Below, in pieces: positions 43,229 through 64,000 of a stretch of DNA of 64,000 nt. The notes under the pieces were generated by a model. The model was not told where the DNA came from, did not search any database, and saw only the letters and a list, made by a program, of their open reading frames with translations. Position numbers and translations under genes: made by a program. The stretch's first letter is position 1; each line of letters begins with the position of its first letter. The stretch is from Dehalococcoidia bacterium (GTDB taxonomy: Bacteria; Chloroflexota; Dehalococcoidia; Bin125): assembly GCA_963663235.2 (NCBI GenBank), contig CAXXNO010000004.1:886830-950829 (forward strand), in the 5' to 3' direction.

Positions 43229-43528
43229 CGTCCGCCTCTCGCCCGGGGCCTCCACCGGTAGACTCCGCGACGATGGCCTTGGCCAAGGCGTTGATGTCGC
43301 GGGGCTTCCTGCGTGGTCACTCAGGTATACCTCTACTGTGGCACACCGCCGCCTAGTCGTGGATAAAAGGCCAACCCTCAAACTGACCCGCTACGCCCGT
43401 TCGACATCGTAACCATGCGGTAGTTCCTCTTGGACGACCGTTCAACGCCGCCCAACTTGACGAACGTCCTCGTCGCCTGATCTTGCGTGATGTTGCGAAG
43501 ACGGGCCACTTGCGTGTCGGTGAGACGA

Positions 43529-44935
43529 TCAGGCCCAGTCGCGGATGTCGACGAAGTGGCCGGCGACGGCGGCGGCGGCGGCCATGGGCGGGCTGACGAG
43601 GTGGGTGCGGCCGCCGGGGCCCTGGCGGCCCTCGAAGTTGCGGTTGGAGGTGGAAGCGCAGCGCTCGCCGGGCTGGAGGATGTCGGGGTTCATGCCGAGG
43701 CACATGGAGCAGCCGGCCTCGCGCCACTCGAAGCCGGCGTCGCGGAAGATCTCCGCGAGGCCCTCCTCCTCGGCCTGAGCTTTGATGAGGCCGGAGCCGG
43801 GGACGACCATCGCGCTGACGCTGGACGCGACTTGCTTCCCCTCGACGACCGCAGCCGCCGCGCGCAGGTCTTCGATGCGCGAGTTCGTGCAGGATCCGAT
43901 GAAGACGCGGTCGAGCGGGATGTCGACCATGCGCGTGCCCGGCGCGAGGTCGTGGTAGGCCAAGGCGCGGGCGGCGGTCTCCTGGGCGGCGCGGTCTGGC
44001 AGGGACTTGGGTTCGGGGATGACGCCGGTGACGGGGACGCTCTGCGCGGGGGTCGTGCCCCAAGTGACGTAGGGCTCGATGCGAGAGCCGTCGATGACGA
44101 CGTTCTTGTCGAACGTCGCGCCGGGGTCGGTGGTCAAGGTGCGCCAGTGGGCCAGGGCCCGGTCCCAGGCGTCGCCGGTGGGGGCGAAGGCGCGGCCCTC
44201 GACGTAGGCGAAGGTGGCGTCGTCGGGCGCGACGAGGCCAGCGCGGGCACCGCCTTCGATCGTCATGTTGCAGACCGTCAGGCGGCCTTCCATGGACATG
44301 TCGCGGATCACATCGCCGCGGAACTCGATCACGTGGCCGACGCCGCCGCTGACGCCGATGCGGTTGATGATGGTGAGGATGACGTCCTTGGGCGTGCCCC
44401 ACGCGGGCAGCGAGCCCGTGACTTCCACCGACATTTGCTTGAGGGGCTGCTGGGACAGCGTCTGCGTGGCGAAGACGTGCTCCACCTCCGAGGTCCCGAT
44501 GCCGAAGGCAAGGGCGCCGAAAGCGCCGTGGGTGGAAGTGTGGGAGTCGCCGCAGACGATGGTCATGCCGGGCTGGGTGAGGCCCTGCTCCGGGCCGACG
44601 ATGTGCACGATGCCCTGGCGCCGGTCCAGCACATCGAAGAGGGGGATGCCGAACTCGTCGCAGTTGCGGCGCAAGGCGTCCACCTGCCGCCGGGAGAGGG
44701 GGTCGGGGAAAGGCTTGTCGCGGTCCACGGTGGGCACATTGTGATCGGGCGTGGCGATGGTGAGGTCGGGCCGGCGGAGGGGGCGGCCGTTTTCGCGAAG
44801 GCCGTCGAAGGCCTGGGGGGAGGTGACCTCATGGATGAGGTGGAGGTCGATGTAGAGGAGGTCGGGCCGGCCTTCCTCCCGTCGGACCAAGTGCGCGTCC
44901 CAGATCTTTTGGGCGAGCGTGCGCGGCTCAGGCAT
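43529..44935 (-). CDS. leuC: 3-isopropylmalate dehydratase large subunit
   Basis: [62 protein letters not shown]. Confidence 0.97.
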
Positions 44936-45057
44936 CGGCCGGCCCTTCCGTCCCGTCACTTAACGGGCGCGGCCATTGTAGCGACGTGGGGTGGCCGATT
45001 TGCGGTCCGGCCGGGGGTGGCCGTCCGGCCTGGGTGTGGAGCGGGCGGCGGGCGGGC

Positions 45058-46191
45058 TCAGGCGAGAAGAGCGATGCCGCCGATGGCGACGAATGCGCCG
45101 AGGACGCCCCAGATCGTGACCCGCTCGTGCAGGAAGATGGCCGCGAGGGGCAGGGCAAAGATGGAGGAGGTGGCGAAAAGGACAGCGGTGGGCCCAGCGC
45201 CGATCTTCTGCACGGCGAAGACGATGAGGATGGTGCCGAGGCCCGTGGTGAAAGCGCCGGTCAACCCGATCAAGCCGGCGATGCGCGGCGTGAAGCCGGC
45301 GGTGAAGAGGCGGCCACGGCGGCCGAGCAGCAGGGAGGTGCCCATCAGGATCGCGGCAGGCGAGAGATGGACGACGGCGACGGCGGAGGCGTCGAAGCCG
45401 GGGGCGACGCTGCGAAGCCAGGTGGTGTCGCCGGCCCAGGCGAGGCCGGTGGCGAGGGCGAAGAGCGCGCCGAGGAGCAGGCGGGGCAACGCGATGCCGA
45501 GGACCGGGATGCGGACGGCCGTGGACGGCGCAGCGATCCCGCTGCCGCCCGCAATGGGCGGGCGTCGGCGCCAGCGCCAGCGCCGGCCGGTTGCGGAGGC
45601 CGGGGGCTTGAGGGGGAGACGGAGGCCGACATCGGCGGAGGCGTCGGTGCGGTTCGATCCCAAGAAGAGCGTGGGCGGCAGCTGCCCGAGACCGGCCGCC
45701 GGTAGGTCGAAGCCAGCGGCGGCGGTCTGCATCGTCGGGCGGGCGCGGCCGTAGACGGCGACGGTGTAGACGCCGACGAGGATGAGGACGGCGCCCGCGG
45801 AGGCCCGCAAGGTCACGGGTTCGTCGAGGAGGATGGCGGGGAGGATGAAGGCGCCGAGACTGAAGAGGCCGATCACGGCGGTGTAGCCGCGGGTGAGGCC
45901 GAGAAAGGCGAGGGTGAGGACGTAGGTGGGCTCGCCGATGGCGAAGATGAGCAAGCCCGCGACGGTGAGCTGCCACATGGTATCGAAGTCCATGCGCCAG
46001 AGGTCACCCTGGCCGCCGAGGACGAAGACGGCGGCCCAGACGAAGGCCGCGGCGAAGACGGTGCGGACAGTGGCGACGGAGATCGAATCGATGTGGGCGA
46101 GCTTGGAGGTGATGAACGTGCCGGCGATGGCCCAGCTGAGGGCGTCGCCGAGGGCGGCTAGGGCACCCATACGCGCCCAGCGTGTCCGCAT
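45058..46191 (-). CDS. DMT/EamA family transporter with a long central loop
   Basis: Two five-helix halves ending LLDEPVT and FLHERVT; start uncertain (46191 or 46170). Confidence 0.8.
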   Translation of the reverse strand: MRTRWARMGALAALGDALSWAIAGTFITSKLAHIDSISVATVRTVFAAAFVWAAVFVLGGQGDLWRMDFDTMWQLTVAGLLIFAIGEPTYVLTLAFLGLTRGYTAVIGLFSLGAFILPAILLDEPVTLRASAGAVLILVGVYTVAVYGRARPTMQTAAAGFDLPAAGLGQLPPTLFLGSNRTDASADVGLRLPLKPPASATGRRWRWRRRPPIAGGSGIAAPSTAVRIPVLGIALPRLLLGALFALATGLAWAGDTTWLRSVAPGFDASAVAVVHLSPAAILMGTSLLLGRRGRLFTAGFTPRIAGLIGLTGAFTTGLGTILIVFAVQKIGAGPTAVLFATSSIFALPLAAIFLHERVTIWGVLGAFVAIGGIALLA

Positions 46192-47533: not shown

Positions 47534-48058
47534 ATGGCTGCTCAAAAGCGGAAGCGAATTACAAGAGGGAGCCGGACGGCTCCATCCTTCCGCGGACTCA
47601 CGCCTGCATCCGAAGCGAGTTCGCGGGCGAAGCGTGCGAACGGCGCGGGAGACACGAAGCCGGAACTGATGCTGCGGCGCCGACTTTGGGCTATAGGGCT
47701 TCGCTACCGTGTGAAGAACCACAGCTTCCCGGGGAGACCCGATCTCGTTTTCCGGCGAGCAAGGGTTGTCGTCTTCTGTGACGGCGATTTCTGGCACGGG
47801 CGGGACTGGCCAAAGCTCAGAGATAAACTGCAGAAGGGGACTAATGGCGAGTACTGGGTAGCAAAGATCGCTCGGAATCGCGAGCGCGACCGCGAGAATA
47901 ATCAGCGGCTTTCCCCAACCGGCTGGCATGTCATCCGCATCTGGGAGGGCGAGATAAGACGGGATCCAGATGCTGCCGCGGAGTGCGTCAGAGATGTGGT
48001 GCATGCACGGCTGCACTCGGGGAGCGAGAGACACCAATTAGAGGTGCCGTGCCACTGA
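47534..48058 (+). CDS. vsr: Very-short-patch repair endonuclease
   Basis: DTKPE..LRR.L...G.RYR, PGRPD.VF, FCDGDFWHG, YW..KI.RN.ERD, IRIWE. Confidence 0.92.
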   Translation: MAAQKRKRITRGSRTAPSFRGLTPASEASSRAKRANGAGDTKPELMLRRRLWAIGLRYRVKNHSFPGRPDLVFRRARVVVFCDGDFWHGRDWPKLRDKLQKGTNGEYWVAKIARNRERDRENNQRLSPTGWHVIRIWEGEIRRDPDAAAECVRDVVHARLHSGSERHQLEVPCH

Positions 48059-49298
48059 CCTGCCCCCCCAGAACCGGTCCAGATCCTGTGCGAGGATTCG
48101 GGCCGGTGCGAAGGGAGTCGGCATGGCACGCAAGCGGTACGCGGCCGAGGAGATCATCGGCCACCTGCGGGAGGCGGAGGGGGTGCTCGCGCCGGGGGAA
48201 TCGGTCGCGCCGGTCGCGCGCCGCCTCGGCGTGGCCGAGCCAACGTATTACCGCTGGCGGCGGGAGGACGGGGGGCTGCGGGTCGACCAGGCCAAGCGGC
48301 TGAAAGAACGGGAGCGCGAGAACAGTCGGCTGAAGCGGGTGGTGGCCGATCAGGCGCGGGCCAACGCGATGGTGCGGGACGTCGCAGCGGGAAACTTCTG
48401 AGCCCGGCCAAGCGGCGCCGGGCGACATCCTACCGCACGGACCCGTACGCGGTGTCGGAGCGGCGGGCCTGCCCGGTCACCGGCCAGGCGCGGGCGACCC
48501 AGCGCGACGTGCCCCGGCCGTCCCCGGATGCGCCGGCGCTGATCGCGCGCAGCGTCGCGCTGGCCCCCCGCTGCGGCCGCTACGGCTCCCGTCGCATCCC
48601 GGCCCGGCTGCGCCAGGCGGGCTGGCGGGTGAACCCCAAGCGGGTCGAGCGGCGCTGGCGTCAGGAAGGCTGGCGGGTCCCCGGGAAGCACCCCCAACGG
48701 GGCCGCCGCTGGCTCGCGGCCGGCTCGCTGGTGCGGCGGCGGGCCGAGCGGCCGTCCCACGTCTGGTCCGACGCCTTCGTCTTCGACCGCACCGCCGAGG
48801 GGCGCCCGGTGCGGATCCTCGCCATCGTGGATGAGGACCACCCGCGAGGGCCTGCGTCTCGACGTCGCCCGCCGACGGCGCCGCGACGTCGGCCTGGCGC
48901 GGTTGGCCCAGCTGTTCGTCGAGCGCGGGCCGCCGCCGTTTCTGCGGTCCGCCAACGGCCCGGCGTGCACCGCCACCGCGGTGCGGGACTGGCTGCACCG
49001 GGTCGGGGGCACGACCCGCTTCATCGAACCGGGCAGGCCTTGGGCGAACGGCTCTGGGGAATCGTTCAACGGCAAGCTGCGCGACGCGTGCCTCAATCGC
49101 GAGCGCTTCGACACCCTGCTGGAAGCCCAGATCCTCATCGCGGGCTGGCGGCGGGAGGACAACCCGATCCGCCCCCACCGTGCCCTCGGCTACCGCCCCC
49201 CCGCCCCGGAAACGCAGCAACCCCGGGAACCGTCCCATGACGCGCGTCCCGGCGATCGGACTCACTTAACGACTGGTACAACGATCGGGGGCAGGTCA
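48056..49298 (+). mobile_element. IS3-family insertion sequence (1243 bp), degenerate; orfA 48123-48401, orfB frameshifted
   Basis: Inverted repeats TGACCTGCCCCC.../...GGGGGCAGGTCA; OrfA YYRWRRE.GG; GGGAAAC at the orfA/orfB junction; ESFNGKLRD.CLN; no target-site duplication. Confidence 0.93.
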
Positions 49299-50171
49299 TT
49301 CGGAGACCGGCGCCGCGTGGTCAACGCCTACGAAGATCACGCCCACGTCTACCAGCACCTGCGGGAGCACGGCGGCACCGTCATCCTCCGAGGTCGGGGC
49401 ATTGTCGCCTCCCGGATCATCCAACGGCTCTGGGAAGAGCGCGCTCACAACGCGAATATTCAGATCATTCATCTTCACCGCTCCCGCCTGGCCGCGGGCC
49501 ACCGGTTCGGCATCGCCCGGCGGCCGGTCAAGGACGAGTTCGAATTGCAATCGTTCAACTGGCCCAAGGGGTGCTGGGGTGGCGAGCCGCGCAGGCTCTT
49601 GGAGCGCGCCTCCGACGAGCGACGAAAGCAGCTCCTCGACGTATGGGGCGGCACCACCACCGCCCGCCGGCGGGACTGGCTCCAAATGATCCAGGACGGG
49701 CTGCGGGAGGGGTGGTACCGGCCGGAATACGGGGTGGTCCGCGAGGTAGAGCTGGCCGACGACGGGGTCGTCACCCGGATCTCGAGCAAACTCGGCGGCG
49801 GCGGCACGCTGGAACTGAAGGTGGACTTCGTCATCGATTGCACGGGCCTCATCGCGGGCCTAGAGCGCAGCCCGCTCCTCACGGACCTGTTGGAGACCTA
49901 TCAACTGCCCCGCAACAAGCTCGGGCGGGTGCAGGTGAGCAATGATTTTGAAGTCGAAGGGATGCGACACGCTCAGGCGCGCCTCTATGCCGCCGGGGCG
50001 ATCACGCTGGGCGGACCGTTCGCCGCCGTCGACAGCTTCCTGGGCCTGCAGTTCGCCGCCTTGCGGGCGGTGGATTCCATCTACTCCCAGCGGCCCGCTG
50101 GGCTGCGCCGCCTCAACGGCCTCTATTCCCTCTGGCAGTGGACGAAGTGGGCGCGGGGAGTTTCGCCGTGA
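49299..50171 (+). pseudogene. 5'-truncated FAD/NAD(P)-binding-like protein of the FHA cluster
   Basis: Coding frame begins exactly at the IS end (FGDRRRVVNAYE); VILRGRGIVASR Rossmann-like motif, VDFVIDCTG, VDSFLGLQ. Confidence 0.75.
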
Positions 50172-50584
50172 CGCCTACGATCAGCGGGCGCTGGCAGACC
50201 CGCGTGGCCACCCTCGGCACGGTCGGTGCCATCGTGACCTCGCTCTTCGCCGCGGGCTATTGGGACGCGACGTTCTTCGTGGTCCTCGGCTACGTCGCGG
50301 CCTTCGGAATCGCTTGGGACGTCCTCTATATCCTTCTGCAACGGCTGCGGTGGGATCGCGACTGGCCGACGTCCTTCCAGGTGGCCAACGGAGTCATCGA
50401 GGGCATCCTGGTCTACGCGCTGATCGACGCCACCGGGCTCCCCGGCATCGAGGAGGGATCCGTAGGAGTGGGCCTCTTCGTCGCCCACTACGGGTTCACA
50501 TGGCTCAGCGCTTTTATCTTGGTGCAAGGGCCAATGCGGGCCGTCTTCCCTCGCTGGCGATTTCTGGGAGGCCGCATCCTCTGA
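50168..50584 (+). CDS. Small four-helix membrane protein (TPTxxGRWQTR / RWDRDWP type)
   Basis: GTGA overlap with the upstream gene; MTPTISGRWQTR, LQRLRWDRDWP, GPMR..FPRWRF.GGR. Confidence 0.8.
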   Translation: MTPTISGRWQTRVATLGTVGAIVTSLFAAGYWDATFFVVLGYVAAFGIAWDVLYILLQRLRWDRDWPTSFQVANGVIEGILVYALIDATGLPGIEEGSVGVGLFVAHYGFTWLSAFILVQGPMRAVFPRWRFLGGRIL

Positions 50585-50603
50585 ACAGTCGGATGAAACG
50601 AAA

Positions 50604-51314
50604 TCAGCGGACGACGACGAGGAAGTTCGCCTCACCGATGCTGATCTCGTCGCCAGTTTCCAACGCCCCCCCCGGAGCAGGTTCGGCGCTCCGAAGGCGT
50701 ACCTTCGTGTCGGTCGGCGACGCGATAACCGGTCTTCCGTCCCTGATCTCGATAGCCGCTTGGGCGGCCGCGGTTCGGTCCGTGGCCTGCACTTCGCCCT
50801 TGCCGCCGGCACTGACGAGAAAGCATTCGCCGGACAGGAGATCGAACGTTTCGACATCGGCGGCAATGAGGCGACAAGCGGTCTCACGCCGCTCAAGGAT
50901 CGTGGTCGGCGCATTGACGAGCAATGTTCCGCAGTACCAACATTCCTTGTCCGTGGCTATGTTTTCGCGAGAGCAGTGGCTACAGATCGGGCCGGAGAGG
51001 CGGTCCCCCGCCGCCAAGTCGTGAAAGGTCAGCTGCACGCTGCCCAGCTGAATGCGGTCGCCGTCGGAAAGCGGGACCGGGCGGTCGACCGGGGCGCCGT
51101 TGACCCTCGCCGGATTGGTCGTGCTGAGGTTCTCGATGAGAAATAGGCCAGCTTCGCCACGCAGCATGGCGTGGGAGCGAGACACGGTCGGGTCGTCCAG
51201 GCGCACCTGCACCTCCCCGGTCCGGCCGATCCGGGTGTCGCCGCGCTCCAGGAGATCGGCCGCGTGGAGCTGCCCGCCCTCCGGCCAGACAAGGACTGCT
51301 CGCGCCATTTCCAT
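50604..51314 (-). CDS. FHA domain + zinc ribbon + degenerate FHA-like domain protein
   Basis: IGR, VSRSHA, STTN..VNG, LSDGDRI.LG; CSHC-x10-CWYCG; C-terminal LETGDEISIG. Confidence 0.85.
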   Translation of the reverse strand: MEMARAVLVWPEGGQLHAADLLERGDTRIGRTGEVQVRLDDPTVSRSHAMLRGEAGLFLIENLSTTNPARVNGAPVDRPVPLSDGDRIQLGSVQLTFHDLAAGDRLSGPICSHCSRENIATDKECWYCGTLLVNAPTTILERRETACRLIAADVETFDLLSGECFLVSAGGKGEVQATDRTAAAQAAIEIRDGRPVIASPTDTKVRLRSAEPAPGGALETGDEISIGEANFLVVVR

Positions 51315-51519
51315 TTCCCTAGATGCCGATGGCATCTGACCTGCAAGGAGTTGAACGTGGGAGTCGGCGGAAAGCCTAGCACGCTGGTGGCGCGGACGGC
51401 GCTATCGCAGAGGAGGCCACCGCGAAGCGCGGCGGCGACCTCGGCAGGCGCTGTCCGCCCCATCACGATGCCCAAGGCGCCGATAACGGTCGCAGGCATC
51501 GTCGGGCCCTCGCTGGATA

Positions 51520-53400
51520 ATGATCCGCTCTACTCGGAAAGATCCAACTGCTGTGCCCGGCGCTGAGCCACTCCCAGAAGCGACGCTGCGCCTCCTGGAA
51601 TCGGGCGAGGTCCATCGTCTCTCCAGCGAGGCCGAGCTCACCATCGGCCGAGCCGGCGACAACGACGTGGTGCTCGATCGCGAGGCCGTCAGCCGGTATC
51701 AGGCCCGCATCCAATTCCGATCCGGCGAGTACACGGTCGAAGATCTGCACAGCGCCAACGGAACCTTCGTCGACCGCGACGGCGAGCTGCTTCGGGTCAC
51801 GGAATCCGCAGCGCTTCGTGCCGGCGACATCCTGCAGGTCGGTCCCTTCCGCCTCCTCTTCCAGGACGGCAGCGCCGCCCAACCCGATCCGGCGCACGGT
51901 CAACCGTGGGGCCGCAGCATTCACGTGCCCACGGTGGCCGCGGGATTCAGTCACTTCTTTGCGGGCTTTCTCGTCTGGGCGCTGCCTGCGGTGCTCGCCG
52001 CTGATATCGCCGCCGACCACGGGCTGTCCGCGGTCGAGGCGAAGATTCTTCCGGCGACCGCGATCATGCTGGGCGCCGGCGCCCGGCTGTTCTTTGGCTT
52101 CATGACGGACTCCCGCGGTCCCTTGCGGTCCGGCGCCTGGTCGCTCGGCCTTGCCGTGGTCGCCCTGGCTGTCCTGGGCGCTTTCGGCAACGAACAGGCG
52201 GTCCTTTGGCCGGCCGTTGCCCTCCTGGGAGTGGGCTTGGCTTCCCTCCCGGTCGCCTTGCCGCTGGCCAGCCAGCGGACCGCGCCGGAACGGCGCGGTC
52301 TGGCGCTCGGCGTGGTGGCCGCCGGAAGCGTGGGCATCGCCTTTGCCGCGTTGATCGGTCCGCCGCTGGCGGACGCCCTCGACTGGCAGTCGGTCTTTGC
52401 GCTGGCCATCGTGCCCACGCTGGCGGCGCTCGGCGTCTTCATCTACGGCGCCCGCGGAGTCTGGTCAGCGCCTCCGCGGGGCGCCTGGCGGCCCATGGCG
52501 CGGGGAAGTGGGCTCCGCGTGGTCGCGCTGATCTTCGGAATCACGTTTGGCTCCTTCGCCGGGCTGTATACCGTGCTGCCCGCCGTCCTGCGGGCCAAGG
52601 ACTTCGAGTTGAGCGTCTCCGAGGCCGTGCTGGTGGTGGCGCTCGGGGCCCTCGCGGGAAGCGTGGCGCGTGTCATCGGCGGCACCCTGGCCGATCGTGT
52701 TGGTTCCAGCCGAGTCCTGCTGTGGGTCATGATCGCGACGACGGCCCTGCTGATCGTCGCCGGGAACCTCCCGCTGGCGCTGGCGCTGGTGGCATTCGTA
52801 GCCACGATGGCCGTCTTCGACGCCGGCACTGCGGCCGTCCTGAAGATGGCGGCCCAACAGTTTGGCCGCACCGTTGGCGTGGGCGTCGGACTCGTGAGCG
52901 CCGTGGGCGGCTTGTTCGGCTTCGCCATCTCCATTCTGATCACGAGCCTGTTCGAGAGCACGGGGTCCGCGGCGCTCGCCTTTGGCGTCCTGGCCGCGGC
53001 GCCCGCCGCCGGCGGCGCCTGGCTGCTGATTGCCGCCCACCGCCGCCCGGCCGGCGTTCGCGCGCCGGCCCTGCCCCCAGGGCCGCAACTGCAACGGCTC
53101 GATCCCTATGGCAAGCCGGTCGAGGGCGTCGCGATCGGACGCGAGCTCTCCATCGGCCGCGCGCCCGGCAACTGCCTCCTCCTGTCCGACGACGACTACG
53201 TCAGCCGCATGCACGCACAGCTCACGGTCGACGAGGGGCAAATCCGTCTCCGCGACCTCGCCAGCACCAACGGCACCATGCTCTGGCGCAATCAGCGCTG
53301 GCAACCCATCGAGACGGAGGAGTTGCGCGACGGAGACATCATCGTGATTGGTGCTAACGTGCTGCGGTACGCAGCGGGATCAATGGAGAGTGAGACGTGA
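51520..53400 (+). CDS. FHA - NarK/NNP-like MFS transporter - FHA fusion protein
   Basis: FHA1 (IGR, VSR, SANGT); MFS core with F.VW, GAGARLFFG..TD, GSVARVIGG.LADRVG; FHA2 (IGR, VSRMH, STNGT). Confidence 0.85.
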   Translation: MIRSTRKDPTAVPGAEPLPEATLRLLESGEVHRLSSEAELTIGRAGDNDVVLDREAVSRYQARIQFRSGEYTVEDLHSANGTFVDRDGELLRVTESAALRAGDILQVGPFRLLFQDGSAAQPDPAHGQPWGRSIHVPTVAAGFSHFFAGFLVWALPAVLAADIAADHGLSAVEAKILPATAIMLGAGARLFFGFMTDSRGPLRSGAWSLGLAVVALAVLGAFGNEQAVLWPAVALLGVGLASLPVALPLASQRTAPERRGLALGVVAAGSVGIAFAALIGPPLADALDWQSVFALAIVPTLAALGVFIYGARGVWSAPPRGAWRPMARGSGLRVVALIFGITFGSFAGLYTVLPAVLRAKDFELSVSEAVLVVALGALAGSVARVIGGTLADRVGSSRVLLWVMIATTALLIVAGNLPLALALVAFVATMAVFDAGTAAVLKMAAQQFGRTVGVGVGLVSAVGGLFGFAISILITSLFESTGSAALAFGVLAAAPAAGGAWLLIAAHRRPAGVRAPALPPGPQLQRLDPYGKPVEGVAIGRELSIGRAPGNCLLLSDDDYVSRMHAQLTVDEGQIRLRDLASTNGTMLWRNQRWQPIETEELRDGDIIVIGANVLRYAAGSMESET

Positions 53401-53885
53401 GTCGCATCGGCTATACGTCAGCCGCCGGCGAGCGGACCTTCCATCTGACCGACTCGTTCTCCGTTGGCCGGGATCCCGACAATGATCTCGTCCTCATGAA
53501 CGACGCCGCGGTGAGTCGCCGCCATGCTCGCCTCCGGCGCGGCGAAAGCGGCTACGAGCTCGCCGACTTGGGCAGTCAGAACGGGACGTTCCTCGCGCGG
53601 CGAGGCGAGGAAACGCGTGTGACGGGCTCTCTCCTCCTGCAACACGGGGATGTCATCCGCGTGGGTCAAAGTCGGTTGATCTTCCAAGACGACGCGCCGA
53701 CCGACTCCACATCAAAAACCGTGATAGCGGACCCGCACCTAACCAGCGTCCCCGGCGTGACGAAGGTAGGAAGATTTCTCCCTACGCCCCCCCTCGATCG
53801 CTCAGAGTCGCCGGCGTCTCGTCCGGCCCAACGGCCCACCCCCTGGCCCTCGCGCTGGCCGCGGCCACGGCGGCGGCGCTCATAG
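53397..53885 (+). CDS. FHA domain protein with Thr/Pro-rich tail
   Basis: VGRDPDNDL, VSRRHA, DLGSQNGT, LQHGDVI.VG; GTGA overlap with the upstream gene. Confidence 0.9.
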   Translation: MSRIGYTSAAGERTFHLTDSFSVGRDPDNDLVLMNDAAVSRRHARLRRGESGYELADLGSQNGTFLARRGEETRVTGSLLLQHGDVIRVGQSRLIFQDDAPTDSTSKTVIADPHLTSVPGVTKVGRFLPTPPLDRSESPASRPAQRPTPWPSRWPRPRRRRS

Positions 53886-53949
53886 CCATGTGACGCCCAC
53901 CGGATCGACCGCGTCCACAATCTCGACCGCGCTATTGGGAGACCCTCGC

Positions 53950-54062
53950 ATGTCTGATTCCACCATCGCCTCAGCGGATGGAGGTCTCATCGGCCTGGCC
54001 GTGATGGGGCGGAGTTCTCCACTCAATTTGGCCGACCACGGCAATCGCGTCGCGGTCTACAA
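53950..54062 (+). pseudogene. gnd: N-terminal fragment of 6-phosphogluconate dehydrogenase
   Basis: AD.GLIGLAVMG...LNLADHG..VAVYN; cut at an IS end. Confidence 0.75.
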
Positions 54063-54330
54063 CCTGGGGGGCGCCAAAACCTCGTCCGCGCATCAGCCAG
54101 CCCAGTCGTAGACGTGGTGGAGCCAACCGAGCACAGGGCGCGCGACGATCGATGACAACGGTCGGCCGCCACGTCGTGGTCCGGCCGGTGGCTCCAGCTC
54201 GAGCGTTCGATGCGGGCGCGCTTCGTTGTAGCACCGCACGTACTTGCAGAGGACGGAGCGGAGATGCCGCTCGTTCACCACTACGAGGTGGTCGAGGCAC
54301 TGCCGCCGGATGGTGCCGACGACTCGCTTC
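54063..54330 (-). mobile_element. Remnant of an integrase-core (rve) transposase and its right end
   Basis: GTIRRQCLDHL.V.NERHL..VL..YV..YN.ARPHR...PVLG.LHHVY; terminal GCGCGGACGAGGTTTTGGCGCCCCCCAGG. Confidence 0.75.
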
Positions 54331-54525
54331 CGCCACACCTTCGCCACCTGGGCGATCGGGAACCACGCCCGCGAGCTGGACGTGCAGTATCTCCTCGGGC
54401 ACTCGACCCCGGCGATGGTGCGGCGCTATTCGGCGACCTACGACGTGGCCAAGGCGGCCGCCGCGGACGCCGCCTTCAGCCCCGCCGCCCGCTTATTCGC
54501 AACCGAAGCCAGCGCGGCCGGCTAA
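54325..54525 (+). pseudogene. C-terminal fragment of a tyrosine recombinase
   Basis: FRHTFAT...VQYLLGHS...MVRRY (box II and catalytic Tyr). Confidence 0.8.
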
Positions 54526-54542
54526 GCGCCTGCTTCCCAAGC
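54447..54542 (+). repeat. 96-bp direct repeat, copy 1 (copy 2 at 56585-56680)
   Basis: 95/96 identical by eye. Confidence 0.95.
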
Positions 54543-54664
54543 CGTTGATCTCGGACCTTCTGACTCCCGCAGGCACCGTACTGCAGATTCGGGAGCAACC
54601 CGCGCGATCCGGTCAAGCCTTCCCACTCCAGCACAGAGGGGGCGAACGAGACCAGGGCCGCCCC

Positions 54665-55466: not shown

Positions 55467-56663
55467 ATGACGGATGTGATCACGATTACCGAGGGCTTGG
55501 CCGAGGACTTTCGCAAGCGCGCGGCCGAGGTCGACCGGGAGGGGCGTTTCCCCCACGAGAACTACGAGAAGATGCGCCGCGTCGGGTACCTGGCCGCCCT
55601 CGTGCCCGAAGAGCTGGGCGGCTTGGGCGCGACGTTGGGAGAGATGAGCCGAGCGCAGCAGGCGCTCGCGCGGGGCTGCGCCTCGACGGCCTTGGCGGTG
55701 AACATGCATCACTTCCAGGTCGGCGCGGCGGCCGACGCCTACCGCGCAGGCGCGGCCACCGAGGCGACTCTGCGCAGGGTCGTGAGCGAAGGCATCGTCC
55801 TGGGATCGACCGGGGCGGAGTTCATCGTTGCGGGCGACTGGACGACCTCCACCACCGCCGAGCGCGACGGGGACCACTACGTCCTCAACGGGCGCAAGTT
55901 CTTCTGCTCCCAGGCCGACGGCATGGACGTGGTGCGGGTGAATGCCTGCGAGGCGGGTAGCGGCGATCTCCTCATCCTACCGGTGCCGGCCGACGGCCCG
56001 GGGGTCACCGTCGTGCCGACCTGGGACACCACTGGGATGCGGGGCACCGCGAGCCATGACTTGGTCTTGGAGAACGTGCGCGTACCGGCCGCTGCCGCGA
56101 CCCGGCTAAATGGGCCAGCGCCCATGCGCGACCCGAAAGCCACCAACTTGGTTCGGTGGTTCCTGGTACTGGTCTCCGGGGTCTATATCGGCGTGGCCGA
56201 GAAGGCTCGGGCCGAGGCGCTCCGCGCGATCGGCGGCGGTCGCAACAGCGCGTTCCGGGCGGAGCCGCTGACGGACGTGCTGCTAGGCGAGATGGAGGCG
56301 GCGTTTCTGACCGCCACCTCAGTGCGGGACGCGGTGGCGGAGCGCCTGGCCACCCCCCAGCCGGACGCCGACACGGTCGTCGCCCAGGCCGCCCTCTGCA
56401 AGGAGGTCGTAACGAGCGCGGTACAGACCGTGATGGACCGGGCGCTCGCGATCACGGGCGGCCGCGCGTTCTTCCGGCGATCGGCGCTGGAGCGGCTCAA
56501 TCGCGACATGCTCGCTGCGCGCTTCCACCCGCCGTCCGCGCCGGTCTCCTTCCAGATCGCCGGGGCCGGGACCCGGCGCGCCGCGGCCAAGGCGGCCGCC
56601 GCGGACGCCGCCTTCAGCCCCGCCGCCCACTTATTCGCAACCGAAGCCAGCGCGGCCGGCTAA
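55467..56663 (+). CDS. Acyl-CoA dehydrogenase family protein
   Basis: VPEELGGLG, STALAVNMH, LNGRKFFCS, WDTTGMRGTASHD, LERL.RD; C-terminal ~26 residues come from the integrase-tail repeat. Confidence 0.9.
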   Translation: MTDVITITEGLAEDFRKRAAEVDREGRFPHENYEKMRRVGYLAALVPEELGGLGATLGEMSRAQQALARGCASTALAVNMHHFQVGAAADAYRAGAATEATLRRVVSEGIVLGSTGAEFIVAGDWTTSTTAERDGDHYVLNGRKFFCSQADGMDVVRVNACEAGSGDLLILPVPADGPGVTVVPTWDTTGMRGTASHDLVLENVRVPAAAATRLNGPAPMRDPKATNLVRWFLVLVSGVYIGVAEKARAEALRAIGGGRNSAFRAEPLTDVLLGEMEAAFLTATSVRDAVAERLATPQPDADTVVAQAALCKEVVTSAVQTVMDRALAITGGRAFFRRSALERLNRDMLAARFHPPSAPVSFQIAGAGTRRAAAKAAAADAAFSPAAHLFATEASAAG

Positions 56664-56680
56664 GCGCCTGCTTCCCAAGC
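56585..56680 (+). repeat. 96-bp direct repeat, copy 2
   Basis: Matches 54447-54542 with one mismatch. Confidence 0.95.
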
Positions 56681-57032
56681 AGTCGGTCGCGGACCGCGAT
56701 TCGCAACCCAAAAGCAGGTATATGGAATATTGGGCCACTACCGCCTACAATTCCGTCCCTGGTAGCCGGATCGAGTTTTCCCCTCTCACGATCGGGGTAA
56801 GAAACCGGTCCCTGCCCTCGTCGATAAATCAGGACCGCCATCCAGCCAACCTCACGAAGGTTGGACCTCATGAGTCGTAAGGCAATCGTAAGGTGCACGA
56901 GATATCAAGAGGGGGAAGGGACGGGCGACCGTCGCGATTGTGCACTGGACCGCCGCCGGCTCACGCGGCGAGCAAGCTCACGGCGACTGCTGACGAAGCC
57001 ACTTGGCCTTCAGCAAGGCAGGTAGGAAGACC

Positions 57033-58205
57033 ATGAATTCCAATCCGGTTCTCACCCCCCAACGAGTGGAAGCGGTGCGACATCTCCTGCTGGCACTCGC
57101 CGCGCTCGCGGGTTTCGCCGCATCCGGCTACGTGCTCAGCTCGCAGGTCGCCGCCGACTTCTTGCGGGAGGGACCTGTTCGCATCACCGGCCTTGAGGGC
57201 GAAACGCTTCGCGTGGTGCTTGGCTTGGGCGCTCTCGCCGCCACGGTCATCGCCGTCGGGGCCGTCTGGCAGCGGGTGCACGCGGTCCGTCTGCTGATCG
57301 CCGCCGTGGCGCTCGGCGGTGGGCTCTTTCTCGCTCATGCGCTGCTGATTCCTGCCGTGACCCTCGTGACGGTGGCTGTGTTCGCGGACTTCTCGGGGCA
57401 CGTGCCGCGGGCGCGTCTCGAGAAGGTGAGGCGCTCACCGCCTGCCTGGGTCGCTGGGGCGCTCGTGGCGGGAGCAGCCGTGGCGGGCCTCGTGTGGGTA
57501 TCGATTTGGCTGCTGGGACCGCTGGTCGATGAGGGGGAGAGTCTCAACGAGACACTGGACTTCCAAGTGTCCGGTCTCGTGCAGCCGGACGTGGTCGAGC
57601 CTGCAGCGGCGACGGAAGAGGCCGACGCTATGACTGCGATGCCCGCGTCTCCCGACACGACGGCCTCCGACGAGGTCGCCATGGCGAGCGATTCGATGCC
57701 CGCCGACATGGGTGCCGTCGGCGACGAAGCCTCTGCGGCCGGAGATCCGACGTCGGCCGACACGGGCCTGCCGAACGACGCGCCTGCCACGGCGAGCGAG
57801 CCAGCGCCGGCTGACACGGACACGGTCGCCGAAGGTGATGCCGCGCCCGCTGCCACACCTCCCGCACGCACCGGCGCCCTGATCGCTCGCGGGGAGCTGA
57901 TGGGGACGGATGCGTTCCACACGGGGAGCGGCGAGGTGCTGCTCGTGAGCGATCCGGACGGAAACCTGGTCTTGCGCTTCCAGGATTACGAGGTGCGAAA
58001 CGGACCGGACCTGTTCGTCTTCCTGACGCCGGACACGGCGGGCGATGTACACGCGGAGGGCGCCGTTAGCCTCGGCGGGATCAGAGCCACCAACGGCTCC
58101 GTGAACTACGAGGTGCCGGCCGATGTCGACCCCACTACGTTTCGCGCCGCGGTGATCTACTGCCAGGCCTTCTCCGTTACATTCGCCGTAGCATCGTTCA
58201 ACTAG
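57033..58205 (+). CDS. Membrane-anchored DM13 domain protein
   Basis: N-terminal hydrophobic helices, acidic Ala/Asp/Pro linker, DM13 motifs H.GSG, NGPDLFVFL, NYEVP, IYC.AFSV.F. Confidence 0.85.
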   Translation: MNSNPVLTPQRVEAVRHLLLALAALAGFAASGYVLSSQVAADFLREGPVRITGLEGETLRVVLGLGALAATVIAVGAVWQRVHAVRLLIAAVALGGGLFLAHALLIPAVTLVTVAVFADFSGHVPRARLEKVRRSPPAWVAGALVAGAAVAGLVWVSIWLLGPLVDEGESLNETLDFQVSGLVQPDVVEPAAATEEADAMTAMPASPDTTASDEVAMASDSMPADMGAVGDEASAAGDPTSADTGLPNDAPATASEPAPADTDTVAEGDAAPAATPPARTGALIARGELMGTDAFHTGSGEVLLVSDPDGNLVLRFQDYEVRNGPDLFVFLTPDTAGDVHAEGAVSLGGIRATNGSVNYEVPADVDPTTFRAAVIYCQAFSVTFAVASFN

Positions 58206-58330
58206 CAGACGGCACGGGCGGCCGTCGCCGGCGCTGGTGACGTGAGAGTAAGGCGCCGGGCGGCATCGGCTGCCCCTCAGCCGTCGCGCGATGGGGTGTG
58301 GCCGTCGCCAAGTTCGGGACCTTCTTCGCC

Positions 58331-60160
58331 ATGCTAAACGCCTCGTCCTCTTTGCGCCGTGAGATCGCGGCCGCCTCCGTCGCGGGTCTGGTGGGCGGCC
58401 TGATCATCGCGGCGGCAATGCAGGAGCGGGGCCTGACGGTGGAAGTGACGGGACTGCTGGGGCTTTCCTCCAGCGCGGGCGGCCTGAGCCTACATATGCT
58501 GCTCGCGGCGCTGGCCGGGGCGGCCTTCGGGGCTATCTTTCGCTATCAGCCGCACAGCTACGCGACCACGATCACCTCTGGCGTGATCTTCGGCCTCCTC
58601 GTTTGGATCATTGGGCCGCTAACTCTGCGGCCGCTCCTCGATGGCGCTAGCCCCACCTGGTCGACGACCGAAGCCGCCGCCGCCTTCCCGAGCCTCATCG
58701 GGCACCTCCTCTACGGTGGCGTCACCGGGCTGGGCTTTCACCTCCTCGTGACGCTCGATCGTCGTGTCCATCCCACGCGGCCCGCGCCAGCTGTCGAGAC
58801 CCAGCCGCTCAAACGCATCGTTATCCTCGGCGGCGGCTTTGGTGGGCTGGGCGCCGCGCAGCGGCTGGAACAGCTCGATATGCGGCAGGCCGGACTGAAG
58901 ATCACACTCGTCAGCCAAAGCAACTACCTGCTGTTCACACCCATGCTCGCAGAGGTGGCCTCGAGCAGCCTCGAGGCGCAGCACATCAGCGCGCCCGTCC
59001 GGGCGGCGTGTCGGCGAACGCATTTCCGTCAGGCTGCAGTCGACTCCATCGACGCCACCGCGAAAGTCGTACGGGTGCGCACGAACGACTCGACGACCGT
59101 CGCTTCTCTCCACTACGACCACCTTGTCGTGGCCCTCGGCGCGATACCGAATTTCTACGGCCTACCCGGGCTAGAGGAGCACTCGTTCACGCTGAAAACC
59201 CTGGACGACGCCACTCGCATTCGCAGCCGGGTGCTCTCTGCGCTGGAGCGCGCCGAAATCGAGCCGGATCCTGCGGAGCGCCGCCGCCTCCTGACCTTCG
59301 TCGTTGCTGGGGGAGGATTCGCTGGCACGGAGACGGTTGCCGAACTGTTCGACCTCGCGCGCAGTGTGCGGCGCTACTATCCGCACCTGGAGCGCCAAGA
59401 CTTCCGCTTCCTCCTGGTCCACGGGGGCGACCGCATCCTCCCGGAGCTCGGCGCGGAGCTCGGCGCTTACGCCCTGGAGAAACTGCGGAGACGGGGGATC
59501 GAGTTCTTGCTCGGCAGGCGAGTGGCGGGAGCGACGTCCGATGCCGTGCTGCTTGACGACGGCAGCGAGGTGCCCACTCGCACCTTCGTCTGGACCGCCG
59601 GAAATCAGCCGAATCCGCTCCTGAAGACGCTCCCCTGCGAGCAAAATCGCGGCGGCCAAGTGGTCGTCGACGGTACCCTGCGCGTCCAAGGACTCGACGA
59701 CGTCTGGGCGGTCGGTGATTGTGCACAGATCCCAGATCCCTACAACGAGGGGCAGTTCTATCCACCCACCGCTCAGCACGCACTCCGAGAAGGAAAGGTA
59801 GTCGCCGAGAACATCGTCGCGGCCCTTCGTGGAGAGTCCTTGAAGGAGTTCCGCTTCCGCACCATTGGGACCCTCGTTGCGCTTGGGCACCGCACAGCCG
59901 TGGCGGAGATTTACGGCGTCAGGTTCTCCGGCCTGGTGGCCTGGCTCATGTGGCGCAGCATCTATCTCAGCAAGCTGCCCGGCATGGAGCGAAAGGTGCG
60001 CGTGACACTCGACTGGGCACTCGATCTCTTCTTCCCCCGCGACATCGCTCTGACGTCCAGCGTCTCGCCGCCGGCCGAATCGGCGGGTCCGAAACGTCTC
60101 GATGACCGATCGACGCGGGAGCCGGCAACGACCAGCGGTGAGGAGCGCATGAAGACGTGA
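58331..60160 (+). CDS. Type II NADH dehydrogenase-like flavoprotein with N-terminal four-helix His-containing membrane domain
   Basis: ILGGGFGG, FTPML.EVAS, YDHLVVALG, VAGGGFAGTE, WTAG, WAVGD, PPTAQHA, WLMWR.IYL.KLPG. Confidence 0.9.
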   Translation: MLNASSSLRREIAAASVAGLVGGLIIAAAMQERGLTVEVTGLLGLSSSAGGLSLHMLLAALAGAAFGAIFRYQPHSYATTITSGVIFGLLVWIIGPLTLRPLLDGASPTWSTTEAAAAFPSLIGHLLYGGVTGLGFHLLVTLDRRVHPTRPAPAVETQPLKRIVILGGGFGGLGAAQRLEQLDMRQAGLKITLVSQSNYLLFTPMLAEVASSSLEAQHISAPVRAACRRTHFRQAAVDSIDATAKVVRVRTNDSTTVASLHYDHLVVALGAIPNFYGLPGLEEHSFTLKTLDDATRIRSRVLSALERAEIEPDPAERRRLLTFVVAGGGFAGTETVAELFDLARSVRRYYPHLERQDFRFLLVHGGDRILPELGAELGAYALEKLRRRGIEFLLGRRVAGATSDAVLLDDGSEVPTRTFVWTAGNQPNPLLKTLPCEQNRGGQVVVDGTLRVQGLDDVWAVGDCAQIPDPYNEGQFYPPTAQHALREGKVVAENIVAALRGESLKEFRFRTIGTLVALGHRTAVAEIYGVRFSGLVAWLMWRSIYLSKLPGMERKVRVTLDWALDLFFPRDIALTSSVSPPAESAGPKRLDDRSTREPATTSGEERMKT

Positions 60161-62938: not shown

Positions 62939-64000
62939 TGACCTGCCCCCCCAGAACCGGTCCAGATCCTGTGCGAGGATTCGGGCCGGTGCGAAGGGAG
63001 TCGGCATGGCACGCAAGCGGTACGCGGCCGAGGAGATCATCGGCAAACTGCGGGAGGCGGAGGTGGTGCTCGCGCAGGGGGAATCGGTCGCGCCGGTCGC
63101 GCGCCGCCTCGGCGTGGCCGAGCCAACGTATTACCGCTGGCGGCGGGAGTACGGGGGGCTGCGGGTCAACCAGGCCAAGCGGCTGAAAGAACGGGAGCGC
63201 GAGAACAGTCGGCTGAAGCGGGTGGTGGCCGATCAGGCGCGGGACAACGCGATGTTGGGGGACGTCGCAGCGGGAAACTTCTGCGCCCGGCCCAGCGGCG
63301 CCGGGCGACATCCTACCGCACGGACCCGTACGCGGTGTCGGAGCGGCGGGCCGGCCAGGTCACCGGCCAGGCGCGGGCGACACCGCGCTACGTGCCCCGG
63401 CCGTCCCCGGATGAGCCGGCGCTGATCGCGCGCAGCGTCGCGCTGGCCACCCGCTTCGGCCGCTACGGCTCCCGTCGCATCCCGGCCCGGCTGCGCCAGG
63501 CGGGCTGGCGGGTGAACCCCAAGCGGGTCGAGCGGCTCTGGCGTCAGGAAGGCTGGCGGGTCCCCGGGAAGCACCCCAAACGGGGCCGCCTCTGGCTCGC
63601 GGCCGGCGCGCTGGTGCGGCGGCGGGCCGAGCGGCCGTCCCACGGCTGGTCCGACGCCTTCGGCCTCGACCGCACCGCCGATGGGCGCCCGGTGCGGATC
63701 CTCGCCATCGTGGATGAGGACCACCCGCGAGGGCCTGCGTCTCGACGTCGCCCGCCGACGGCGCAGCGACGACGGCCTGGCGCGGTTGGCCCAGCTGTTC
63801 GTCGAGCGCGGGCCGCCGACGTTTCTGCGGTCCGCCAACGGCCCGGAGTTCACCGCCACCGCGGTACGGGACTGGCTGCACCGGGTCGGGGGCACGACCC
63901 TCTTCATCGAACCGGGCAGGCCTTGGGCGAACGGCTCTGGGGAATCGTTCAACGGCAAGCTGCGCGACGCGTGCCTCAATCGCGAGCGCTTCGACACCCT
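62939..64000 (+). mobile_element. IS3-family insertion sequence, second degenerate copy, runs off the window
   Basis: Same left inverted repeat as 48056; orfA starts at 63006 with its stop mutated TGA>TGC; about 97% identical to copy 1 by manual count. Confidence 0.93.

Follow-up and report, generated by a model that had tools for sequence, protein, structure and literature searches.

The FHA-MFS-FHA gene and its domains

We analysed a stretch of 64,000 nucleotides (nt), hereafter the window, from the genome (G000) of a Dehalococcoidia bacterium of the phylum Chloroflexota (assembly GCA_963663235.2, contig CAXXNO010000004.1, positions 886,830 to 950,829 of the forward strand), and within it a gene which encodes a transporter of the MFS superfamily with one FHA domain at either end. 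We refer to this gene and its product as FMF. An earlier note, made from the letters of the window alone, had described an open reading frame (ORF) of 626 amino acids (aa) with this order of domains, and the ORF list, Pfam, an AlphaFold2 (AF2) model and an alignment of ten sequences all bear it out. The frame runs uninterrupted over 51520..53400 of the plus strand from an ATG start, and Pfam recognised two stretches as FHA (119.2 bits, cut-off 20.7) together with MFS_1 (82.1 bits, cut-off 33.4). The AF2 model, built from ten orthologues, reached a mean predicted local distance difference test score (pLDDT) of 82.1 and a predicted template modelling score of 0.68. In it residues 21-115 fold into a beta-sandwich, residues 136-508 form twelve long helices and residues 523-618 make up another beta-sandwich; both sandwiches are modelled mostly at pLDDT 73-91, and the low-confidence linkers lie at residues 119-131 (pLDDT <50) and 509-514. 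The gene and its parts are as follows.

51520..53400, plus strand: FHA-MFS-FHA gene (FMF), 626 aa; ORF list, two Pfam FHA matches plus MFS_1, orthologues, spanning contigs from three studies
51577..51864, plus strand: N-terminal FHA domain, residues ~20-115; best Pfam stretch 41-108, AF2 strands E21-E115, invariant loop residues
51865..51924, plus strand: N-linker, residues 116-135, with the conserved motif D123-P124..Q128-P129-W130; invariant or near-invariant columns, pLDDT <50 at 119-131
51925..53043, plus strand: 12-helix MFS core, residues 136-508, NarK-derived; helices H136-H508, TIGR00886, Foldseek, residue map, tree
53044..53085, plus strand: C-linker, residues 509-522, followed by the conserved sequence L-x-R-L-D-x-Y-G with which the C-terminal FHA is entered; invariant L524, L527, D528 and G531, linker plus FHA also found on the exchanger protein P0167 (below)
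53086..53373, plus strand: C-terminal FHA domain, residues 523-618; AF2 strands E523-E618, invariant loop residues, C-terminal FHA clade with support 99

Ten sequences with the full architecture, the window protein included, make up alignment A1. In all ten the N-terminal FHA keeps G43, R44, S58, R59, S78, N80, G81 and T82, and the C-terminal FHA keeps G546, R547, S562, R563, H565, S582, T583, N584, G585 and T586. These residues form the G-R, S-R/x-x-H and N-G-T loops, which we take to be the loops that contact phosphothreonine, and judged by them both FHA domains look competent for phosphothreonine reading. The claim that both domains are intact thus stands for the invariant loop residues, with one blemish in the window protein, whose N-terminal domain has Gln (Q61) at the His position of its S-R-x-H motif (His in 8/10 sequences). 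The best sequence matches of the two domains in the PDB were single-FHA regulators of the GarA/OdhI type, and the N-terminal domain also matched FHA-1 of Rv1747 (chain 6cah, E 1.1e-8).

The fusion is real and rare

That the fusion is an artefact of assembly or gene calling we regard as having practically no chance of being right. Three Logan contigs, coming from three studies, carry both domain junctions of FMF in one piece: X1 (5085 nt over 49269-54300, 1 difference), X2 (4510 nt over 49269-53778, 1 difference) and X8 (5253 nt over 49298-54013, 162 differences). These also settle the check for a chimeric join which the earlier note had proposed. The sole indel listed within the FMF ORF among metagenome contigs is one of 3 bases at 53195. 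Furthermore, the same architecture occurs at five other distinct loci and in nine other full-length protein clusters, which share the same three Pfam domains at 49-62% identity and 607-621 aa, and because these nine clusters share the entire architecture chance is excluded as well. The artefact reading is thereby refuted; the gene is real and not an assembly chimera.

The architecture is already present in the sequence databases, labelled only as a transporter: one cluster is named 'MFS transporter [Chloroflexota bacterium]' and another 'NNP family nitrate/nitrite transporter-like'. A profile search with FMF through 1.84 billion representatives returned three full-length representatives and fragments, after which came multi-FHA proteins and FHA-less MFS proteins of ~400 aa that score around 200 bits. 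One of 24 relatives from the same family as G000 carries FMF, and no further copy was found at E 1e-60 in 400 additional genomes of the phylum, which are a sample and not proof of absence. Searches with the alignment as query found 2 FMF loci in genome contigs and 5 in metagenome contigs, and a single-protein query for related loci found none in either. As several of these loci duplicate each other, the distinct lineages with genomic context number five, namely the window, L004/L012, L007/L008, L009/L013 and L010, with L011 as an extra fragment. An Atlas search with FMF gave no large named FHA plus MFS_1 cluster among the clusters of >=50 members that Atlas covers. A full-text literature search, with subscription journals mostly outside its reach, did not find a published description of the FHA-MFS-FHA architecture, in agreement with the earlier remark that none was known; PMC8195603 mentions both terms, but at places that have nothing to do with each other.

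Descent of the MFS core from NarK-type porters

The top NCBIfam match of FMF is TIGR00886, the NarK family (E 1.3e-35). It scores 123.2 bits where the cut-off is 311.7, less than any other full-length match in our sample of the class. Among 121 genomes of the class none exceeded this cut-off, the best reaching 311.2 and the FHA-less relatives scoring 150-311. Foldseek gave E. coli NarK (4u4v) as the best PDB match of the model (E 1.7e-11, TM-score 0.74 by target, 20% identity), followed by FLVCR1 and NarU at ~2e-9. By sequence alone the link to NarK is weak, as phmmer of FMF against the PDB returned only FHA chains, and with the profile of the family NarK was matched only at E 0.006 and PiPT at 7e-6; the evidence for the link is thus TIGR00886, Foldseek and the tree.

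For the tree we aligned 64 core sequences, comprising the ten FHA-flanked cores, 30 FHA-less hits, 23 NarK-like ORFs of the same class and E. coli NarK (annotated record), and analysed 406 columns with IQ-TREE, using E. coli NarK as the root. All ten FHA-flanked cores fall into a single clade (support 100), whose stem measures 1.36 substitutions per column and which is nested within a clade of 39 rows (support 99) whose other members are FHA-less and ~400-475 aa long. The terminal branch of the window protein measures 0.12. A single nested clade on a long stem indicates that the fusion arose once from a NarK-like ancestor and that fast divergence followed. On this comparative evidence the FMF core is a descendant from inside the NarK-like proteins of the family of nitrate/nitrite porters (NNP). 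Of the FHA-less sisters, L029 overlaps the gene of an 839-aa Fe4S4-molybdopterin oxidoreductase, and L028 and L034 stand in tandem with a paralogue resembling E. coli NarK; these sisters look like real nitrate carriers.

A rebuilt substrate pocket

According to Fukuda et al. (2015, PMC4432589), the nitrate site of NarK is made of F49, R89, F147, N175, Y263, F267 and R305, the exchanges Y263F and R305K abolish transport, and S366 hydrogen-bonds R305. We mapped these and further NarK positions on FMF by MAFFT alignment and compared the FHA-flanked clade (n=10) with the other sequences (n=54).

NarK F49; window F150; kept in the clade; others F 48/54
NarK R89; window R189; kept in 10/10 of the clade; others R 53/54
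NarK G144; window L240; clade L/V 10/10; others G 50/54
NarK F147; window L243; clade L/M/P 10/10; others F 52/54
NarK N175; window S270; clade S 10/10; others N 43/54
NarK Y263; window F339; clade F 7, Y 3; others Y 52/54
NarK F267; window F343; kept in the clade; others F 51/54
NarK G268; window G344; kept in the clade; others G 54/54
NarK R305; window R384; kept in 9/10 of the clade, window included; others R 51/54
NarK G363 (transmembrane helix TM10); window D434; clade D 7, E 3; others G 51/54
NarK S366; window T437; clade T 9/10; others N 38/54
NarK G417; window F466; clade F/L/V 10/10; others G 50/54

The NarK residues kept in every clade member are F49, G85, R89, G141, G164, G174, G177, F267, G268 and G309, and nine of ten members keep G168 and R305. 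The landmarks named by the earlier note were correctly placed, since F150 and W153 of the window protein are F49 and W52 of NarK, and R189 and R384 are R89 and R305. Its reading of 'GVGLASLP' as the drifted Gly-rich nitrate signature was mistaken, as this is the motif of TM4 (G141..G144..F147 of NarK) and signature 1 lies in TM5. In signature 1 the glycines of G164, G168, G174 and G177 persist, those of G171 and G172 do not; in signature 2 (TM11) G408, G414 and G418 are kept and G417 is replaced by F/L/V. Both motif-A loops are kept in the clade (D197/R199 and D392/R393). In cytoplasmic loop 4-5 NarK Y/F158, a Tyr or Phe in 52/54 relatives, has become T254 in 10/10 clade members, flanked by the clade-new residues R253 and R259. 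The new acidic residue of TM10, D434, lies a single turn of the helix away from the residue which in NarK contacts R305, and helix geometry suggests that it may pair with R384.

Descent from within the NNP family and both pocket arginines (R89 in TM2, R305 in TM8) are thus found in FMF, and its score on the curated hidden Markov model as well as its residues at Y263, N175 and F147 lie outside NNP membership. The earlier statement that the core groups with the NNP proteins accordingly holds for tree nesting, TIGR00886 and Foldseek and fails for the family score and these three positions, while the clade-specific changes in the alignment uphold its suggestion of an altered substrate site. The source genome, which is 91.9% complete, contained no NarG, no copper nitrite reductase NirK and no NIR_SIR domain, and only two weak molybdopterin-oxidoreductase matches. 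The pocket changes, the score below cut-off and the lack of nitrate and nitrite reductases in G000 together make an altered substrate likely. FMF is thus a NarK descendant with a rebuilt pocket, whose substrate is probably neither nitrate nor nitrite; it may carry another small anion, or transport with altered coupling.

A conserved kinase and multi-FHA module in relatives

By comparing ORFs across the loci and scanning them with Pfam we defined a module around FMF. Its order in the relatives is kinase, FHA-flavoprotein, small membrane protein, FHA-zinc-ribbon protein, FMF and small FHA protein. The members intact in the window besides FMF are the following.

50138..50584, plus strand: membrane protein, 148 aa, without Pfam or NCBIfam match; 57-69% identical homologues in every locus reaching this position
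50604..51335, minus strand: FHA and four-Cys zinc-ribbon protein, 243 aa, divergent from FMF; Pfam FHA 57.1 bits, invariant C118, C121, C132 and C135
53397..53885, plus strand: small FHA protein, 162 aa; start overlapping the FMF stop by 4 nt, Pfam, conserved neighbour

The kinase of the module, a protein of 941-1076 aa encoded on the minus strand, joins a Ser/Thr Pkinase domain to PD40 beta-propeller repeats, and its gene adjoins that of the FHA-flavoprotein in both loci that reach so far (L007, L013). The flavoprotein measures 647-738 aa at full length and has an N-terminal FHA followed by ~550 aa without a Pfam family. Its AF2 model was poor (pLDDT 52.8) and the Foldseek matches, to Lys/Orn N-hydroxylases and dihydrolipoamide dehydrogenase, had TM-scores of 0.2-0.35; together with an Atlas lead they only suggest a flavoprotein with two dinucleotide-binding domains, resembling Lys/Orn monooxygenases, and nothing narrower.

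The small FHA gene comes immediately after FMF in 6/6 loci and is translationally coupled to it; the 4-nt overlap of the two genes recurs in L007/L008 and L009/L013. Its product scores 61 bits on the OdhI model, under the cut-off of 200, and in the six sequences of alignment A2 its tail is invariant at T116-x-V118-P119-x-x-T122-x-x-G125 and P129. The small FHA protein of L010 ends in a hydrophobic stretch resembling a membrane anchor. In a tree of the FHA domains, which comprised the five orthologous types found in the module, the N- and C-terminal domains of FMF and the small-protein FHA formed one group (support 99), and those of the zinc-ribbon protein and the flavoprotein formed a second. 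A glutamate dehydrogenase gene adjoins the module in L007/L013 and was considered as a further member, which the evidence does not support; its G000 orthologue (69% identity) lies ~243 kb away, with neither an insertion sequence (IS) nor a module remnant beside it.

The position of FMF in the module can be taken by another transporter. P0167, an 873-aa protein named Kef-type by JGI, combines Na_H_Exchanger, a universal stress protein (Usp) domain and FHA; the last ~110 residues of FMF, linker included, are ~60% identical to its tail, and in the FHA tree this tail nests within the C-terminal FHA clade of FMF (support 99). Exchanger-Usp genes without the FHA tail were found in two further genomes: in G094 (L065, 8934-11135) a gene of 733 aa stands beside FHA-zinc-ribbon and FHA-flavoprotein genes, and in G025 (L064, 12486-14705) one of 739 aa adjoins a kinase of the module type. 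The underlying tally, 13 of 301 genomes, takes in one unpublished genome (G263), on which nothing stated here depends. A Kef-type exchanger can therefore occupy the same kinase and multi-FHA module. Taken together, gene order and domain content suggest that FMF is the membrane output of a rare but conserved multi-FHA/Ser/Thr-kinase module of uncultured Chloroflexota.

Disruption of the module by an IS3 element

In the genome of the window the module is cut on its left side, and fragments of mobile elements lie on its right.

48056..49298, plus strand: IS3-family element abutting the truncated flavoprotein gene; HTH_Tnp_1, HTH_21 and rve_3 matches
49299..50171, plus strand: surviving C-terminal 290 aa of the FHA-flavoprotein gene; 68% identical to the L007 protein (647 aa) over its residues 358-647
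54096-54347, minus strand: rve_3 transposase fragment on the right flank; Pfam
54244-54525, plus strand: phage-integrase fragment on the right flank; Pfam

A homology search with the L007 protein did not find the first 357 aa of the flavoprotein anywhere in G000, and the abutting IS3 element has taken out these 357 aa together with the kinase of the module. In this copy of the element the transposase reading frame falls into two parts in different frames (48452.. and 48831..). The element recurs in the same orientation at 62939-64000, where it shows 96.8% identity over 1062 nt and runs into the contig end. Between them the two copies enclose 13.6 kb with the FHA cluster, which may form a composite mobile segment. 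At 49269-49298 the metagenome contigs break off, and the depth of the IS is in the hundreds to thousands against ~7 for the cluster. The X8 contig continues for 537 nt to the left of 49298 without a window match at 95% likeness; this strain may be without the insertion or may carry a diverged copy of it. In the bacterial family of G000 Hanks kinases are uncommon, with a match in 6/31 genomes, and the other family member that holds FMF has 5 Pkinase matches.

Other features of the window

Beyond the cluster a direct repeat of 117 nt occurs at 54441-54557 and 56579-56695 (94% identical, 2138 nt apart). Through this repeat the phage-integrase fragment and an acyl-CoA dehydrogenase ORF (55467-56663) end in a near-identical C-terminal peptide, and the genes of an HxlR regulator and the acyl-CoA dehydrogenase are bracketed by it. 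At 57003-60160 a DM13-domain protein (400 aa) is followed by a pyridine-nucleotide-disulphide oxidoreductase with an NDH2_C domain (620 aa) resembling NDH-2; a homologue of the DM13 protein (48% identity) is also found downstream of the cluster in L012. An ORF of 755 aa at 43487-45754 has no Pfam family and an unusual GC content by codon position (gc1 0.82, gc3 0.75), and may not be a real gene.

Proposed mechanism and alternative readings

At the level of the family we lean, at somewhat better than an even chance, towards a NarK-derived carrier of altered substrate which is gated by FHA reading of phosphothreonines written by a kinase; what we infer in it is which residues are phosphorylated, how the clamp works and that the substrate has changed. 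The PD40-propeller kinase of the module would phosphorylate Thr residues on module proteins, candidate sites being T254 in cytoplasmic loop 4-5 of FMF and, on the small FHA protein, the tail residues T116 and T122, and the two FHA domains of FMF would bind them. The FHA domains sit at the two cytoplasmic ends of the carrier, where linkers of 15-20 residues would connect one of them with the N-bundle and its counterpart with the C-bundle, and since the domains are anchored on opposite bundles their binding could act on the rocker-switch movement, restraining or releasing alternating access and thereby turning transport off or on. The kinase gene in the same cluster of the relatives fits such phosphothreonine control, and the kept arginines, gating glycines and motif A argue that FMF still cycles. 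A bolder form of this proposal, to which we give a rather low likelihood, is a two-point phospho-clamp that locks or frees alternating access and serves interchangeable outputs, either a NarK-derived carrier whose pocket an Asp in TM10 has retooled for a new substrate or a cation exchanger of the Kef type. If true, it would be an undescribed modular form of Ser/Thr-phosphorylation control over bacterial secondary transport.

Several observations weigh against the reading that we favour. Pfam Pkinase had no match in G000 (91.9% complete), although control genomes were positive, and a search of G000 with the L007 protein did not find the kinase domain of the module, only PD40 repeats being matched. 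The single PP2C_2 match of the genome lies ~115 kb from the cluster, and no RNA run was listed as covering the locus. With no kinase found in G000, phospho-gating by a Hanks kinase cannot be shown to operate here, so that the earlier idea of phosphothreonine gating draws support from the kinase gene in the cluster of the relatives and loses it in the source genome. On the side of transport, Y263 is retained in 3/10 family members and the pocket change is thus not entirely family-wide; the kept R89 and R305 would allow an anion, even nitrite, as substrate; and the residue map is a MAFFT alignment rather than a structural superposition.

It may be argued that FMF is still an NNP nitrate/nitrite porter which has merely acquired FHA regulatory ends. 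TIGR00886 as top NCBIfam match (E 1.3e-35), E. coli NarK chains as the best structural matches, the nesting of the core among NarK-like sequences, the retained R89, R305, F49, F267 and G268, and the genes around the FHA-less sisters (the Fe4S4-molybdopterin oxidoreductase beside L029, tandem NarK pairs for others) would all suit it. We nevertheless consider it improbable, as the score of 123 bits against 311.7 is the lowest of any full-length match in the class sample, the family profile reaches NarK of the PDB at E 0.006 only, and NarG, NirK and NIR_SIR were not found in G000, where two weak molybdopterin matches were all that appeared. The pocket itself shows N175S, F147L, G144L, a new Asp/Glu in TM10 and Y263F, an exchange that abolishes NarK transport (PMC4432589). 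The loss of residues essential in NarK, the long stem branch after the fusion and the ability of the module slot to take another membrane protein would equally suit a protein that does not transport at all, being a membrane scaffold or transceptor which presents two FHA domains or senses a ligand. Such a role we think unlikely, because both motif-A loops are conserved across orthologues of 49-62% identity, and the helix-bending glycines G268, G365, G408 and G414 and both pocket arginines are kept, which a dead scaffold would not need.

The last alternative concerns the local copy and is compatible with the favoured family-level reading: FMF in this genome could be a stranded remnant of an IS-disrupted island which has lost its regulation and is decaying. 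At 49298/49299 the truncated flavoprotein gene borders on one copy of IS3, the contig ends in another, the right flank holds fragments of mobile elements, Pkinase was not found in G000, and all four FHA matches of the genome are confined to this cluster. Decay is nonetheless not what the gene itself suggests, for its ORF is unbroken and keeps every signature residue, its terminal branch measures a short 0.12, the X8 strain still covers it despite 162 differences over 4.7 kb, and the only listed indel is of 3 bases; moreover, 8% of the genome is unassembled. We hold it unlikely that the copy is a decaying remnant. On the favoured reading of a phosphothreonine-gated carrier, the local FMF would either rest in an unphosphorylated default state or be on its way to loss.

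FMF should thus not be annotated as a nitrate/nitrite transporter, and it should be borne in mind that its regulatory partner is missing in this genome. In the rebuilding of its NarK-type pocket five positions conserved in the relatives shift together, four of the pocket and one glycine of TM10, while the two arginines stay, which makes it useful for the study of how substrate specificity evolves in the NNP family.

Comparison with known systems

With NarK, NarU and the NNP family (TC 2.A.1.8) FMF shares the 12-helix fold, F49, R89, F267, G268, R305 and most of the signature glycines. It differs from them in scoring below the TIGR00886 cut-off, in the replacement of G144, F147, N175 and Y263 (7/10), in the added acidic residue of TM10 and the FHA domains, and in a source genome without nitrate or nitrite reductase context. 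In GarA an FHA domain and a Thr-bearing peptide form a self-binding switch, and like GarA and OdhI the small FHA neighbour of FMF has an FHA and a short Thr-bearing peptide on one chain; the Thr motif is, however, C-terminal to the FHA and not N-terminal as in GarA and OdhI, and the protein stays below the cut-off of 200 on the OdhI model. The distance of ~243 kb to the glutamate dehydrogenase gene in G000 lends no support to a connection with 2-oxoglutarate enzymes.

Among eukaryotes, nitrate-type transport or signalling is set by Ser/Thr phosphorylation in NRT2.1, in NRT1.1 (at T101) and in yeast Ynt1. These transporters are themselves the phospho-substrates and have no phospho-reader fused to them. 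In bacteria we know of hardly any documented case of direct control of MFS transporters by Ser/Thr phosphorylation, and to our knowledge Rv1747, an ABC pump, is the sole FHA-bearing transporter that has been studied.

Rv1747 of M. tuberculosis has two N-terminal FHA domains and the kinase PknF in its operon, and its function is positively regulated by phosphorylation on two Thr residues (PMC3138270); a universal stress protein is reported to bind its FHA I (PMC5549992). FMF likewise has two FHA domains on a transporter chain and a Ser/Thr kinase gene in the locus, here only in the relatives L007 and L013, and the alternative transporter of its module carries a Usp domain. The differences are that Rv1747 has an ATP-driven ABC body with its FHA domains in tandem at the N-terminus, whereas FMF is a secondary MFS transporter with one FHA per end, and that the FMF module contains three further FHA proteins and its kinase was not found in the source genome. 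By analogy FMF would therefore resemble Rv1747 in the principle of its design, but it is not a member of the same system. With a phospho-reader on each moving half, the FMF family lends itself naturally to the question whether alternating access can be gated by tethering that depends on phosphorylation.

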